Source: a virus (lineage: Duplodnaviria > Heunggongvirae > Uroviricota > Caudoviricetes). Taken from it: DNA of 9,336 nt. Below, in pieces: positions 1,846 through 8,128 of this stretch. Each line of letters opens with the position of its first letter. Position 1 is the stretch's first letter. The notes under the pieces are model-generated. The model ran no database searches and was not told the DNA's origin. It worked only from the letters and a program-made list of their open reading frames with translations. The stretch covers positions 1 to 9,336 of the IMG/VR virus record IMGVR_UViG_2734482772_000015. The stretch is one strand, 5' to 3'. The position numbers and the translations under genes are program-made.

Positions 1846-2136
1846 TTACCGCCGCAGTCGTTCCGGCTTCTTCCACTGGTAAGTATTTTTCGCGCTCTCC
1901 CTCCGTTGTTGAGAACGGCGACGGTATGCCAGCAACTCAAGGACTCTGGTTCGTATGTTGCGCATATCCACGCCGTTAAGCTCAATACCGTCACGGCGCA
2001 TCACCTCAGCCACCACACGCGCGTAATTTTCGGCTATCACGCTGTCCGGCTGTGTAGCCTGTTCGTCAGGCTGCTGACTGATTCCGGTAATGCGGCGAAT
2101 TATTTTTAGTAGATCAGTTTCAGTCATTCTCGTCAT
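1846..2136 (-). CDS. hypothetical 96-aa protein, translationally coupled to terL
   Basis: ATG at 2134-2136 overlaps the terL stop codon (ATGA). Charged, helical-looking composition, unlike the Cys/His-rich antisense ORF. No family recognised. Confidence 0.5.
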   Translation of the reverse strand: MTRMTETDLLKIIRRITGISQQPDEQATQPDSVIAENYARVVAEVMRRDGIELNGVDMRNIRTRVLELLAYRRRSQQRRESAKNTYQWKKPERLRR

Positions 2137-3794
2137 ACCCCATCAAACGCCGCAAGTCGCTTTTTGTGGCTGTCGCTCATATCAAATGCAAATTCCTCAT
2201 GCTCTGCCTGGAATGTGCCAAACGCCATCAGCGCCGCAACGCTCGGGTCTATCTTGTTGGATGATTTTTTCTTGTTCGGCTTGATATTGGCGTTCGCGTC
2301 ACTCTGCATCACAACATTACTCATTGACCAGGCCAGCACCGGATCACCACGATGCACAATCACCTTCCGGTTAACAAAAACTTCGAACGATTTCGCCGCC
2401 GGACTGAAACGAAGGTATGTTTGCGGGAACGGCTCCACTTCTAATCCTGCCCCCTGTAGCTGCGTCCTCAGGTGCGTGGCGTTCCATGTATCGAAGCCCA
2501 CCAGCCTGATATTGAAATTCTCTGCATCCGCCATGATGTCATCACGGATACGGTCATAATCAATGCAGTCACCCGGTGTTGTGCGTATCCAGCCCGCCTT
2601 TACCCACTGGCGATAGATGGCGCGGTTTTTATTGGCGGGGTTCTGTAGCTGAAATTCCGGCAGATAGTGACGGGAAACCAGCATAATCTTTTTACCGACC
2701 GGAAAGGCATAGCACACGCTGGAAATATCGCTGGTTGATGATAAGTCCAGCCCCGCGTAGCACTCCTGCCCGTATAAATCCGCCTCCGCGAACGTTCCGG
2801 CGCACTCCGTCCATGCACCGTTACCCATCCACGGCGTAGCCCCCTGACACCAGATATTGAATCGCTTGGTGAGCATTTCCACCCACTGCGACGGAATACC
2901 CCGCGCTTTCTGGATGGTTGAGGCCAGTTTTTCACGATCGACGGAAACATCGATATTTGGATTCGCCTTTATCCACATCGCCGGATCGTCAACCTCGCTT
3001 TCATCATCCAGCTCGTAAATCAGAACGAACATGGATTCGTTCATCTCTTCACCATCCAGTATCTGACAGCAATAGTCATAGTGTTGTTTACAGGCTGAAA
3101 CAACGTTGCTCCCCGATGTGGTAATGGCAAATAACAGCCCCTCCGGACGCGCCCCCATCCCCAGCTCAAGTGCGGAATAAACCCCGTTGTCTGGGTGCAG
3201 GTGATATTCATCCACAATGGCAAGACTCGGGTTTGTCCCCTCAATGGTTGCCGCTTTTGCTGCCAGTGGCTTTAACAGGCTGTTGGTTTTCGGGTGTATC
3301 ACCTTGTGCGCCTGAATATTTACCCGCTTTCGTAACGGTCGGGATAAAAGGCACATCTGACGCGCATCATCAAACACGATCCGCGCCTGATCACGACTCA
3401 CGGCGGCGGTGTAAATATCCTGCTGCCCGTTTTCCATAACCAGAAACCAGTTAGCCAGGATAGCGGCGACCGTGGATTTGGCATTTTTTCGCGGTACTTC
3501 AATGAATGCGCTGGTGTATTTGCGCCGTCCGGTGGCCTTAACCTTAAAGCCCAGGATGCACGCAAAGGCGAACTGCTGCCACGGCTCCAGCTCAATGGGG
3601 CTACCACGCATTGCGCCTTTTACGTGCGGACACACCCTGGAAAAGGCAATAAACCGCTCAACGACCTCCGGATCGAACGTGTAAAGGGGGTTTTCAAGGT
3701 CAGAAAAATACCGTTTAACGGCCTGTTTCAGTCGTTTACAGGCCGTAATTTTGCCGTTTTTTACGCCTTCTGCGTACTCATGCCAGGCAGTCAA
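2133..3794 (-). CDS. phage terminase large subunit
   Basis: 553 aa with the overall layout of a phage terminase large subunit, including an N-terminal ATPase region with a Walker-A-like PRKNAKST. The start codon is TTG at 3792-3794, preceded by the SD-like GAGGAAGAGGA. No in-frame ATG occurs until about residue 62. Confidence 0.88.
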   Translation of the reverse strand: MTAWHEYAEGVKNGKITACKRLKQAVKRYFSDLENPLYTFDPEVVERFIAFSRVCPHVKGAMRGSPIELEPWQQFAFACILGFKVKATGRRKYTSAFIEVPRKNAKSTVAAILANWFLVMENGQQDIYTAAVSRDQARIVFDDARQMCLLSRPLRKRVNIQAHKVIHPKTNSLLKPLAAKAATIEGTNPSLAIVDEYHLHPDNGVYSALELGMGARPEGLLFAITTSGSNVVSACKQHYDYCCQILDGEEMNESMFVLIYELDDESEVDDPAMWIKANPNIDVSVDREKLASTIQKARGIPSQWVEMLTKRFNIWCQGATPWMGNGAWTECAGTFAEADLYGQECYAGLDLSSTSDISSVCYAFPVGKKIMLVSRHYLPEFQLQNPANKNRAIYRQWVKAGWIRTTPGDCIDYDRIRDDIMADAENFNIRLVGFDTWNATHLRTQLQGAGLEVEPFPQTYLRFSPAAKSFEVFVNRKVIVHRGDPVLAWSMSNVVMQSDANANIKPNKKKSSNKIDPSVAALMAFGTFQAEHEEFAFDMSDSHKKRLAAFDGV

Positions 3795-4134
3795 GCTCGT
3801 CCTCTTCCTCTGTTTCCGGTGGATTTCTGCGGCGGCTTACCGGGTCAAAACCCAGCAAAGAAGCCATTTTGATCATTATTCTTTCTGCGTCAGCCTTTGC
3901 GCTCAGGGCGGGGTTTCTGCTCTCGCTGCCCTGACTGTTAACAATGCTGAACCCGCGCGTCGCAAGGTCTTCGACGGCTTTGCGGTATATGGAGTAGTTA
4001 ACGCAATACAGTTCCAGATTGCTCCAGTCGGCGGGGGTAAGGTCTTCCCGCCCGGAAAGCTGGCGCGATTTTTCCTTCCACTGCCTGACCGCGATTTCAT
4101 CCAGGTAAGCGGGGGCTTTTGGTGGTCTTGCCAT
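3778..4134 (-). CDS. phage terminase small subunit (P27-like)
   Basis: 119 aa from the ATG at 4132-4134, beginning MARPPKAPAYLDE, which is typical of P27-family small terminases. Acidic C-terminal tail. Its 3' end overlaps the terL start by 17 nt. The longer 165-aa reading was rejected. Confidence 0.75.
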   Translation of the reverse strand: MARPPKAPAYLDEIAVRQWKEKSRQLSGREDLTPADWSNLELYCVNYSIYRKAVEDLATRGFSIVNSQGSESRNPALSAKADAERIMIKMASLLGFDPVSRRRNPPETEEEDELDCLA

Positions 4135-4149
4135 GTTCTTTTTTCGCCC

Positions 4150-4260
4150 AATTATTTTCAAAAAAATTACCGTGCACAAAAATTTGAGGGGGCGGTCGGT
4201 GTCCGGCAGGGACGGTTTCGTCCTGAAAACCACCCCCACCCCCTCTGACGGCCTCACCAG
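4150..4260. other. candidate cos / packaging-initiation region in the HNH-TerS gap
   Basis: The 285-bp non-coding gap (4138-4422) holds an A-rich tract (4155-4185) and a GC-rich segment with inverted GAGGGGG (4186-4192) / CCCCCTC (4239-4245) flanking GGACG-gtt-tCGTCC. The position between HNH and TerS is where cos sites sit in HK97-like phages. Confidence 0.35.
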
Positions 4261-4422
4261 CGATTGCGAAAACATTCCATGACCTCGCGGTCACGGTCGG
4301 TTAATCGCTTCGCTGTGGTGCGTTTTGTGCGCCCTGTCCTGTTGGCTTTGTGCTCTGTCTCCTGTGTCTTCCATGTGTCACGCTGCCTTATCAGTCCACG
4401 TATCAGCCTGGTTTGCTCCTGT

Positions 4423-4863
4423 TCAGTCATCATCGCCATACATCCAGTCGTTACGGTGTGCCGCCCGTTCTTCCTGCTCGCGATACATGCCCGCTTTACG
4501 GTTTGCTTTCGTGGCTGGATCTTCCCGTGTCGTCTTACGGTTGTGGCACGTCTGGCACAATGCCTGGTGATTCCACTCAGGCCAGAAGAGAACATCACCG
4601 CCGCCATTGATGGGAATGATGTGATCCACCACAAGAGCTGGCGTATAAATCCCCTTAGCCAGACAACGCACGCATAACGGGTTTTTGCTCAGGTACAGGG
4701 CGCGGTATTTGTCCCACTGTCGGGAATACCCGCGCGCGCGGCGGTGTCCCCGTCTGGCATCCTCTGCACGCCATGCAGCCCGCCTGTGCTCTTCACACTT
4801 GCCGGACTTCACGCGCTTATTACAGCCAGGCTCAGTGCATCGCCTTAATGGTTGCCACGGCAT
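4423..4863 (-). CDS. HNH endonuclease (terminase-associated)
   Basis: 146 aa with paired Cys pairs (CTEPGC...C and CVRC), VDHIIP, and N...LC..CHNRKT, i.e. an HNH motif. Its start overlaps the connector stop (TGATG). Confidence 0.85.
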   Translation of the reverse strand: MPWQPLRRCTEPGCNKRVKSGKCEEHRRAAWRAEDARRGHRRARGYSRQWDKYRALYLSKNPLCVRCLAKGIYTPALVVDHIIPINGGGDVLFWPEWNHQALCQTCHNRKTTREDPATKANRKAGMYREQEERAAHRNDWMYGDDD

Positions 4864-5165
4864 CAGTACACCCCCACATCACGATAAACCGACCAGAGCG
4901 CAGAAATAGCCATAGGCAGTTCCGAGTGCTCAACTGGTGAAACCGCTTCCCGGTTCTCGTACAGAAAAGCGATGTACATCAGGCAACCAACACGTATTGC
5001 CGGGGTAAATTCCAGGCCGTCTTCAAAACGTTTCCCGATATGCTTCTGGCAGGCTTCCAGCGCCGCATCGGTATATATTTGCAGAAGTTCAACCTCACCA
5101 TAAAAATCATCATCAAGGCGAAGATGGGCCATTACTTCATTAAGCGTAATTCTGGATTCACTCAT
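4863..5165 (-). CDS. head-tail connector / DNA-packaging protein (gp6-like)
   Basis: 100 aa from the ATG at 5163-5165, with the SD AAGGTGA upstream. The N-terminus MSESRITLNEVMAHLRLDDD resembles gp6-type head-tail connectors. Its start overlaps the portal 3' end. Confidence 0.65.
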   Translation of the reverse strand: MSESRITLNEVMAHLRLDDDFYGEVELLQIYTDAALEACQKHIGKRFEDGLEFTPAIRVGCLMYIAFLYENREAVSPVEHSELPMAISALWSVYRDVGVY

Positions 5166-6372
5166 CTTTTTCACCTTTAATTTCCACAGTCTGCTTCCAT
5201 GCCTGGCTGAACTCGTCACCCCCTTCACGCGGCGGCATACCCTCACGCTCACGGGCTTCGTTCGGATTCATGATCCCGTTCTTAATCCCTTTCTCATACG
5301 TGGCATAACGTTCGGTGGGTGTGGCGCGTAATAAATCGGCTGAATCAAACTCAACCAGATAACGGGTACCAGGTACGGGAGAAGCCACCAGCAAAGCGGC
5401 CTTGATTTGCTGTTCGAAGTTCGCCAGCCATGGGCGCATTGTCATGGTCAGAAACGCGCGGCTTGCCTCGCTGAAATTGCTGTAGGTGCTGTTGCTGTAT
5501 TCCTGCAGAAAAATAGGCGATACGTTGAACATGCGGGCGATGTCTTCAATGGAGAAGCGACGGGAGGCCAGCCATTCCGCATCCTGGTTACTCATTCCCA
5601 GTTGCTTGTAATCCATGCCCCCTTCAAGGATTGGCGTTTTTCCGGCATTTTTCGCCCCCTTGTAGCGTTCCAGAGCATCTAATGCCTGTTTACCTTTCAC
5701 GCCGTCCAGCCATTCGCCTGACGTGATAATCCCTGCCGCCATCATGCCATCTTTCATAATGCTGGCTCCGTGGCGCTGTTGAGCAAGGCCAAGCCCAAGC
5801 GCCTCACGGCAAATCGTGACAGGGGAACGCCCCAGAAAGCCATCATCCGAGGCATAGCGGAGATGCAGAACTTCTTCCTGTAAATACGTGCGCACCGTTC
5901 CTGTATAGGGTTCGGTGATGGTATAGCGGTATTTGTGTGCGCCTGTGCGTTCCGGTACAACACACCCCGGCGCATAAGGATGAAGTGATTTTGGCTGCCC
6001 GTCTTGCCCCCACTCAATAACCGCATAGGCGTTACCGTTCAGCAGGCAGTGACGCATCATTGTGCGTTTAAACTGGTAAGGTGTCTGGCACGAATTAGGC
6101 TGCTCATTCAGCAGAATATCTACCGGGTGACTGTCCAGCCATTCCCGCGCCTCCCTGCCCTTGTCATTACGTACCAGATACAGATAACACGGCATCGTGG
6201 CCACCGCCTCAGCGATGACAGAAACCGCGTTCATCACTGCAGGCAATGATTCAGCCGTCCCGGCAGAAACATATTCTCCGGATCCGGTATTCGGTACGCC
6301 GGACAGCGCCAGAAAATCATCAATGGACAGGTTACGCTGCTCGCTTTTTTTACGACTAAAAGGCCACCACAT
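5158..6372 (-). CDS. phage portal protein (HK97 family)
   Basis: About 404 aa from the ATG at 6370-6372, which lies 1 nt after the protease stop. Size and position fit a portal. The track's longer start at 6462 is a TTG and was not preferred. Confidence 0.88.
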   Translation of the reverse strand: MWWPFSRKKSEQRNLSIDDFLALSGVPNTGSGEYVSAGTAESLPAVMNAVSVIAEAVATMPCYLYLVRNDKGREAREWLDSHPVDILLNEQPNSCQTPYQFKRTMMRHCLLNGNAYAVIEWGQDGQPKSLHPYAPGCVVPERTGAHKYRYTITEPYTGTVRTYLQEEVLHLRYASDDGFLGRSPVTICREALGLGLAQQRHGASIMKDGMMAAGIITSGEWLDGVKGKQALDALERYKGAKNAGKTPILEGGMDYKQLGMSNQDAEWLASRRFSIEDIARMFNVSPIFLQEYSNSTYSNFSEASRAFLTMTMRPWLANFEQQIKAALLVASPVPGTRYLVEFDSADLLRATPTERYATYEKGIKNGIMNPNEAREREGMPPREGGDEFSQAWKQTVEIKGEKDE

Positions 6373-6982: not shown

Positions 6983-8128
6983 TTACTCACCAGCCTGAAT
7001 TTCCAGAATCTTGATGGCGTTCGAATCCACCACACCACCGCCCAGATATTTCTGGGTATAGATGTTAATGAATCCGGGTTCGCTGAAGTCCGGACGGGTA
7101 CGCGTACCGGTTTCATGGTCAACGATGAAATAACCGCGCTTAAAGTCACCTACTGCAATCACACCGTCCGGCATAAATTCCAGATATTCAACCGGAAGCC
7201 CCAGCAGAGAATCAGGATCACCAGCCTGTAAACGATCGCGCCAGATGTAATCACCAGTGGCATTTTTCAGTTTTTGTGCGGAGGCGGCTGTATTTGAGTT
7301 CATCACCCATACAGCTTTTTTGCGGTACTTATTGCGCAGCGTAAATTTCAGGTCAATCAGCATGTCGGCGCTGAGACTGCCAGTAACTTTTTTCGTCTGG
7401 AGCGTACCGAAAGGACGGGTTTTGTCGTTATCCGCAGTGCGCGGGAACGCCAGGAAACCTTTAGCTTTTTTCTCGCCGTCACCGGAAACCAGATCCGTTT
7501 CTTCGGTATCAACGAAAGTGTCGCCAATTTCAGAAGATAACCAGCTCATAATATCGACTTCGGAAAAATCGATAATTTCCTGAGTGGTTTTCGGGTAAGC
7601 GTAGATCGGATACAGGCGGATGCTGACTTCGTTCAGTTTCGGCGTTGCCGTCTGGTTACGTGCCGCACCTTCCTCGCCATGCTCAACCACCGCGCCACCA
7701 GCGGAAACCAGTTGCTTAAATTCATTGCTGTGAATGGTTTTAACGGTACAGATTTTGCGCATCACCGATTCATCGGCAAGCTGGCGCATAATCTCTTTAT
7801 TCAGCTCGGGAATAACGGTATAGCCACCATCAGCCGGGACACTGCCGGACAGGTTGCGGGTTTCCCCGGTCAGAATGTAAGAGCGCAGTTCATCTTTGGT
7901 GATTTTCTCTTCGACGGAAACACCAGGCTGGTTACGTTCTTCATCCGCAACAGCTTCAAGACGGGAAATTTCTGTGTCGAGGGAATCGGCTTTTGCACGC
8001 AGTTCATCAAACTGTTTGCCCTCGTCATCGTTCAGGCTGCGGTTTTCACTGTCGGCTTTTTCCAGCAGGGATCGCATCTGGTTTTTCAGGGCGGTTTTTT
8101 GCTGGCGGAGTTCGATTAATTTCTTCAT
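6983..8128 (-). CDS. major capsid protein (HK97 fold) with N-terminal scaffolding (delta) domain
   Basis: 381 aa with ATG at 8126-8128. The first ~100 residues are coiled-coil-like and charged (delta domain), followed by a capsid-like body ending in a Gly-rich C-terminus. Confidence 0.9.
   Translation of the reverse strand: MKKLIELRQQKTALKNQMRSLLEKADSENRSLNDDEGKQFDELRAKADSLDTEISRLEAVADEERNQPGVSVEEKITKDELRSYILTGETRNLSGSVPADGGYTVIPELNKEIMRQLADESVMRKICTVKTIHSNEFKQLVSAGGAVVEHGEEGAARNQTATPKLNEVSIRLYPIYAYPKTTQEIIDFSEVDIMSWLSSEIGDTFVDTEETDLVSGDGEKKAKGFLAFPRTADNDKTRPFGTLQTKKVTGSLSADMLIDLKFTLRNKYRKKAVWVMNSNTAASAQKLKNATGDYIWRDRLQAGDPDSLLGLPVEYLEFMPDGVIAVGDFKRGYFIVDHETGTRTRPDFSEPGFINIYTQKYLGGGVVDSNAIKILEIQAGE

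Follow-up and report, generated by a model that had tools for sequence, protein, structure and literature searches.

Where is the DNA of a satellite cut for packaging if the satellite encodes both its own capsid and its own terminase? This question is raised by the space between the HNH endonuclease gene and terS in the window, i.e. the whole stretch of 9,336 nucleotides that was analysed, for which a cos site of the satellite's own had been suggested (original prediction). The window is part of a capsid-forming PICI (cf-PICI) of the EcCIEDL933/KpCIDSM30104 family, an E. coli satellite lying beside the chromosomal gene hpt (1-537), which follows the element's last gene. All genes are encoded on the minus strand in the order SSB, small hypothetical gene, major capsid (6983-8128), prohead protease, portal, one head-tail connector, HNH, TerS, TerL and a 96-aa hypothetical gene. 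The assignment to the cf-PICIs is based on the presence of the element's own capsid, protease, portal, connector, HNH, terS and terL genes in this order and on the lack of tail and lysis genes. In the annotated identical E. coli locus, which was read to 18 kb, the SSB gene, a DUF927 primase-like gene and an Icd-like gene are located upstream, and no tail genes were found. Such a tail-less order has been published for proteobacterial cf-PICIs, and EcCIEDL933 and KpCIDSM30104 share the module order from capsid, protease, portal and connector to HNH, terS and terL. Only one head-tail gene (4863-5165) is present between portal and HNH, whereas EcCIEDL933 has two, for head closure and connector; according to the published work on cf-PICIs, tail specificity is set by the head closure and connector proteins.

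The DNA between HNH and terS is present in 490 of the 5426 complete E. coli genomes, and it is 85% identical to the copy in EDL933, an O157:H7 strain that carries the prototype EcCIEDL933. Up to five copies of the region occur in some complete E. coli genomes, which indicates several cf-PICI-like elements per chromosome. At the other end of the packaging module, the 96-aa ORF (1846-2136, minus strand) overlaps the TerL stop, matches PHROG 1561 (E = 1e-53) and occupies the same position in EcCIEDL933. Between hpt and this last ORF of the element lie a 118-nt direct repeat (943-1060 and 1379-1496; 97% identical, 436 nt apart, with palindromes in each copy) and, between the two copies, three tandem 21-nt units (TAACCCGCAA..., 1299-1361). 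These repeats could be an att, end-of-island or iteron region.

The genes on both sides of the space are those that had been proposed. Pfam searches confirmed an HNH endonuclease gene upstream (4423-4863; PF01844, 8.8e-10; PHROG 144, 3.6e-45) and a TerS-TerL pair downstream, all on the minus strand. The HNH protein is a homologue of HK97 gp74 (36% identity, E = 6e-17). The large terminase (2133-3794; PF03354 and PF20441) resembles HK97 gp2 over its full length (28% identity, E = 1e-49). The small terminase (3778-4134) belongs to the P27 family (PF05119, 1.6e-23), and no pairwise similarity to HK97 gp1 was detected. Its start, ATGGCAAGACC, is invariant among the relatives. A mechanically called ORF of 165 aa (3778-4275, minus strand) was discarded; it consists of TerS and an accidental in-frame upstream extension through the conserved DNA described below, in which the relatives carry indels.

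The space itself had been described as 285 bp of entirely non-coding DNA (4138-4422). In fact, it covers 288 nt (4135-4422), and a conserved ORF of 58 to 61 aa fills about 60% of it, leaving a non-coding remainder of 119 nt (4135-4253). The description as a sizeable gap still applies, since the 288-nt space is the largest intergenic one in the run from capsid to TerL and the 119-nt remainder is still the largest of the operon. A small conserved ORF in the gap had been named in advance as an argument against a cos site. Such an ORF does exist; the cos reading stands all the same because the ORF ends 10 nt before the first conserved non-coding block, the G-block. The functional signal occupies only about 4152-4243.

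How strongly this signal is maintained can be seen from the column entropies of 15 representatives (<97% identity), which were taken from loci found through the TerS protein only. Reading along the minus strand, the first conserved block is the G-block GGGGGTGGGGGTGGTTTTCAGGAC (4220-4243; entropy 0.20, 71% invariant columns), followed by a variable spacer (4201-4219; entropy 0.87) and a core (4152-4200; entropy 0.28, 65% invariant columns). The core starts with the invariant A4200 and C4199. The next ten nucleotides, 5'-CGACCGCCCC-3' (4189-4198), which are the predicted 3' cohesive end, are moderately conserved (entropy 0.56). They are followed by CTCAAATTTTTGTGCACGGTAATTTTTTTGAAAATAA (4152-4188), a segment with two phased T-tracts and the predicted TerS recognition region, of which 4160-4188 has an entropy of 0.26 with 69% invariant columns. 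The terS leader with the RBS region (4135-4151) is variable (entropy 0.95) and carries indels in the relatives. For comparison, the third codon positions have entropies of 0.76 in TerS and 1.01 in HNH. The conservation of the two non-coding blocks matches that of first and second codon positions and indicates purifying selection. Both blocks also recur in AT-rich elements that share no other flanking sequence with the window. The core pattern CCNCCTCAAATTTTT has a single exact match in the window, with 0.13 matches expected by chance at up to two mismatches, and the exact core (29 specified bases) was found in 20 species-representative genomes of the Enterobacterales and Pasteurellales. One IMG/VR contig carries the G-block expanded to five tandem GGGGTA units upstream of the cos core, an arrangement prone to form a G-quadruplex.

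The individual motifs pointed out in the original prediction can be placed on this map. The A-rich tract is real and corresponds to the plus-strand A-tracts CAAAAAAATT (4159-4168) and CACAAAAATT (4175-4184); the idea that it is an IHF site was not borne out, as the IHF consensus WATCAANNNNTTR has no match with up to one mismatch in 4135-4422. The lack of this consensus and the P27-family TerS also set the region apart from a lambda-type cos site. Likewise, GAGGGGG (4186-4192) and CCCCCTC (4239-4245) are present and conserved, each as part of a separate block and not as symmetric partners of an inverted repeat. The C-run holds the predicted cohesive end. The GGACG..CGTCC dyad between them (GGACGGTTTCGTCC, plus strand, 4211-4224) exists, and most of it lies in the variable spacer; it is specific to the subgroup of this element and not conserved in the relatives.

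Since the two blocks are located directly upstream of terS, and since AT-rich tracts could resemble promoter or UP elements, they might serve the expression of terS-terL as a late promoter, an operator, a translational enhancer or an RNA element rather than DNA cutting. However, a scan for sigma-70 promoters in the gap found none on the sense strand, and the sole promoter-like match is on the plus strand. The terminator scan of the gap returned two weak hairpins and nothing convincing, and an Rfam scan of the whole window (E <= 1) had no match in the gap. When 4180-4250 was folded as single-stranded DNA, the minus strand reached -18.3 kcal/mol (z = -2.84, one of 200 shuffles being as stable), and the plus strand was not clearly beyond the shuffles (z = -1.38). 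Among 99 unique cores that were folded, there was no conserved hairpin in the spacer, the RNAalifold consensus was only -2.2 and the folds differed from sequence to sequence. The gap therefore holds neither a covarying structure nor a known RNA family. Moreover, the region nearest to the start codon is the most variable one, and homologous blocks straddle the physical genome ends of several phages and of a Klebsiella particle assembly (see below). We regard a role in expression as very improbable, and a cos site is favoured because no Rfam family, sense-strand sigma-70 promoter or convincing terminator accounts for the conservation.

The comparison with phage cos regions was run on HK97-type phages, whose cos sites were located through TerS relatives and by reading both ends of the linear records. 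A BLAST search of the gap against the phage records returned two matches only. A MAFFT alignment of the window and the Klebsiella cf-PICI with the junctions of phi1026b, EPP-1, SfV, HK97 and AbIPP1 is gapless between the G-block and the first T-run, and A4200 and C4199 are invariant in it. The records of HK97, phi1026b and EPP-1 break after one and the same column, which is 4189 of the window. With a slash for the break, phi1026b reads ...GGGTGGGGAGGGGGGGAG...GGGAC CGCCCGCTTC / GTCAAATTTTCACGCCCGCG... (terS at +46), EPP-1 reads ...GGGTAGGGGGTGGG...CCGTAC TGCCCGCCTC / CCCCAATTTTTATGACCGCG... (terS at +48) and HK97 reads ...GGGGGGGGG...ATGAC CGCCGCCAAA / GTTTGAATTTAACGC... (terS at +50). The corresponding stretch of the window is ...GGGGGTGGGGG...GGACAC CGACCGCCCC CTCAAATTTTTGTGCACGG..., and the terS ATG is located 54 nt downstream of the predicted cut. 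Gordonia phage Kita, which was compared by eye, has the same layout with the cut, 6 nt and then T5 (...GGTAGGGGGGGCGGG...CGGCTGGGGA / GCTCGCTTTTTACACGC..., terS at +56). A G-run is found in the same place in HK97, phi1026b, EPP-1, SfV, AbIPP1, Kita and YeP2; in the window, it lies 21-54 nt upstream of the predicted cut. Two further candidates for comparison were set aside, namely the S. thermophilus cos phage CHPC879, whose record ends overlap and whose layout is not comparable, and Salmonella phage As1, a partial myophage scaffold that is uninformative. The layout of a G-block, a 10-nt end, 6 nt and T5 thus extends from Gordonia phages to E. coli satellites. To our knowledge, a cos layout shared across HNH-dependent terminases has not been described before.

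Several of the junctions that were used have been defined by experiment. The Burkholderia phages phi1026b, phiE125 and phi644-2 have ten-base 3' extensions with the right end 5'-CGCCCGCTTC-3' (PMC2920897), and the phi1026b record closes with exactly these ten nucleotides. For EPP-1, PhageTerm analysis of a ligation-based library was used to correct the ends. In HK97, the overhang measures 10 nt, and the minimal TerS site spans +15 to +29 and includes the T-tract (bioRxiv 10.1101/2023.07.17.549218). By position, about 4161-4174 of the window would correspond to this minimal site; the transfer is an analogy because the TerS of the element lacks pairwise similarity to HK97 gp1. The predicted nick positions are carried over from the alignment of the phage junctions, and the length and polarity of the overhang are likewise taken from the relatives. 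Judged on this basis, nicks between 4189 and 4188 on the minus strand and between 4199 and 4198 on the plus strand, which would leave the 10-nt 3' overhang CGACCGCCCC, have a somewhat better than even chance of being exactly right.

It is conceivable that the cos site is located here and that the nicks fall elsewhere in the segment, for instance in the spacer about 21 nt upstream, or that the overhang differs in length or polarity. The SfV record (NC_003444) contains the cos-like blocks, and its first base lies 21 nt upstream of the shared break column, so that either its ends were defined differently or SfV is cut differently. Because of this discordance, record termini are not uniformly reliable. 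In addition, the first base of the YeP2 record lies 1 nt ahead of the equivalent 10-mer, at the opposite edge of the cohesive end, and the Klebsiella assembly described below leaves some freedom as well. Against a different position, four records of independent source (HK97, phi1026b-type, the PhageTerm-corrected EPP-1 and Kita from SEA-PHAGES) share one break column, the invariant AC directly precedes the 10-mer, and the spacer is the least conserved part of the segment. Cutting elsewhere within the site is therefore considered improbable, and the predicted nick positions are retained.

Further evidence comes from a sister element. The assembly LR881103 ('vB_KppS-Ant', 16.5 kb) was obtained from particle DNA of K. 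pneumoniae DSM 30104 with a Nextera XT library and SPAdes. Its description as 'Escherichia phage vB_KppS-Ant', a filamentous ssDNA phage, does not hold, since it is actually the cf-PICI of DSM 30104/ATCC 13883 (100% identical, with HK97-type capsid and terminase genes). The cos core of the cf-PICI in K. pneumoniae ATCC 13883 is the same as that of the window. LR881103 is linear, starts 22 nt before terS and ends with ...GGTTTTCAGGAC. At both ends of the record, 1500 nt match the chromosome of ATCC 13883 (= DSM 30104) with 100% identity, the last at the locus coordinates 2256-3755 and the first at 3825-5324, and exactly 69 chromosomal nucleotides are missing from the assembly, GAACACGAGGGCGCCAGGCACCACCCGCCCC/CTCAAATTTTTTCGCACGGTGATTTTTTTGAAAATAAA, where the slash marks the predicted cut that splits the hole into 31 and 38 nt. 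A hole of this kind would be expected if a linear molecule had been tagmented, as sequence at both of its ends is lost from such a library, whereas a circular or permuted molecule would give overlapping contig ends instead. The assembly bounds the ends to within about 35 nt and not to the base, and the hole could partly be a coverage dropout in a homopolymer-rich stretch instead of molecular ends. Among the virome matches listed, no contig ends at the cut, and the two contig ends near the region fall elsewhere.

The sister element also bears on the question of whether the blocks could be a pac-type initiation site for headful packaging, as the TerS-dependent sites of pac phages are also found near or within terS. 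Only one pair of defined ends is seen in the particle assembly, which is not a circular or permuted contig. Moreover, HNH-associated HK97-type terminases are reportedly cos enzymes. For KpCIDSM30104, whose host is DSM 30104, renaturation of the DNA via cohesive cos ends has been reported (bioRxiv 10.1101/2025.02.11.637232). Of all explanations considered, a pac site is the least probable. The proposal that the gap holds the satellite's own cos gains support from three independent lines, namely the conservation of the non-coding blocks, the gapless alignment to mapped junctions and the particle assembly of the sister element. The site is located between HNH and an HK97-type terS-terL pair and is homologous to experimentally defined junctions with the termini in register, SfV being off by 21 nt. 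We conclude that the non-coding DNA at 4152-4243 is very probably the cos site of the cf-PICI, a homologue of the HK97/phiE125-type sites that are used by HNH-dependent terminases. In the literature searched, no paper gives the position of a cf-PICI cos and no physical mapping of the ends of any cf-PICI was found.

By analogy to the phages, packaging could proceed as follows. On replicated concatemers, the satellite TerS would bind the core with its T-tracts directly in front of terS (about 4152-4188) and position TerL, with the HNH protein as a cofactor, for the staggered nicks in the minus and plus strands that would release the 10-nt 3' overhang. Packaging would then start from the terS side with the left end CTCAAATTTTT... 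and run around the element until the next cos ends it, so that the satellite-made capsid would take up HNH, the small ORF and the G-block last. As a guess, the G-block could act as a termination signal comparable to lambda cosQ. In this scheme, the exact nick positions, the binding of TerS to the T-tracts and any role of the G-block are inferred.

The small ORF that separates HNH from cos had been expected least of all the features and deserves attention in its own right. It encodes 58 aa (4254-4430, minus strand), its ATG overlaps the stop of the HNH gene (ATGA), and the match of the protein to PHROG 3173 (E = 5e-27) covers positions 1-57 of 57. In the identical E. coli DNA, PGAP has placed the start at 4439, which gives 61 aa (4254-4439); the start that aligns with the relatives is 4430. 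The length differs between elements, with 58 aa here, 57 aa in EDL933 and 50 aa in the Klebsiella cf-PICI. Of the 156 related loci, 148 carry it intact, and four or five divergent types with 50 or 58 aa can be distinguished among the sequences; it is frameshifted or missing in about 10 loci, and two are without the ORF. The N- and C-terminal thirds vary mainly at third codon positions (C-terminal entropy 0.36/0.25/0.71 for the three positions), the C-terminus reads RDRExxECFRNR, and the middle third is unconstrained. The pooled pN/pS is 0.61 in frame versus 1.27 and 1.14 in the other frames. A homologue search for the small protein returned relatives from E. coli or E. fergusonii only, all of them annotated as 'hypothetical protein'. 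Thus, the ORF is a real and weakly constrained gene that is separate from cos.

The PHROG 3173 protein was found solely in enterobacterial cf-PICI-like elements, and no ORF of this family is present between HNH and cos in HK97, phi1026b, EPP-1, SfV, YeP2 and Kita. Acinetobacter phage AbIPP1 carries a 72-aa ORF, unrelated in sequence, between HNH and its cos-like G-block/GACCGCCCCCT core. The position may therefore be a recurrent slot for small accessory genes. In the cf-PICI paper, a 'hypothetical gene 1792' of the packaging module has been described, whose mutation severely reduced but did not abolish the transfer of EcCIEDL933. This gene may be the small ORF, the other candidate being the 96-aa ORF behind terL. 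That the basic 58-aa protein is a satellite-specific packaging factor is a speculative and rather unlikely idea; such a factor might aid the satellite terminase in recognising its own cos or keep the HK97-type terminase of a helper off.

The predicted site can be compared with several known systems. In HK97, cos is likewise flanked by the HNH gene and terS, and the TerL and HNH proteins are homologues of those encoded here. The layout is also the same, in that a G-run and a spacer precede AC and a GC-rich end of 10 nt, the cut is followed by 6-7 nt and then by T-tracts, and the distance between the cut and the terS ATG is about 50 nt. However, the overhang is CGCCGCCAAA instead of the predicted CGACCGCCCC, the sequence of the TerS site differs as well, and no PHROG 3173 ORF is annotated behind the HNH gene. 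The Burkholderia siphophages phiE125, phi1026b and phi644-2 have a P27-family TerS with 32-34% identity, and the phi1026b-type cos core is the closest mapped one (ACCGCCCGCTTC/GTCAAATTTTCACGC versus ACCGACCGCCCC/CTCAAATTTTTGTGC here). Unlike the satellite, these are complete phages that have tail genes; the arrangement of their second A/T tract is different, and a small ORF between HNH and cos is lacking. The cos of phage lambda, with cosQ, cosN and cosB, has a 12-nt 5' overhang and IHF sites and is used with a Nu1-type TerS and no HNH protein. It follows the same tripartite logic, in which the nick site is flanked by an upstream element and by a region beside the small-terminase gene that TerS binds, and it differs from the window, where the gap has no IHF consensus. 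SaPIbov5-type cos satellites and P4 are also packaged via cos; they use the cos and the terminase of the helper, whereas the site described here pairs with the satellite's own TerS, TerL and HNH.

It has already been published that cf-PICIs encode their own packaging specificity with their own HNH, TerS and TerL (bioRxiv 10.1101/2022.09.08.507074). A satellite with HNH-dependent cos packaging of its own is thus known, and the present result refines this picture by placing the site through homology, with the cut predicted to the nucleotide. Both the difference between the predicted end CGACCGCCCC and the HK97 end CGCCGCCAAA and the lack of pairwise relatedness between the TerS proteins fit the reported packaging exclusivity between satellite and helper. 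The cf-PICIs package only themselves in self-built capsids and cross species with borrowed tails, and the cos site would be the cis half of this exclusivity. A signal of roughly 90 bp would be transferable to plasmids for testing or exploiting satellite-specific packaging, and the core with its 29 specified bases may serve as a sequence tag for finding related elements in the Enterobacterales and Pasteurellales. Finally, the prediction for the cohesive end is precise, and the predicted end is distinct from that of HK97, the model for HK97-like helper phages.
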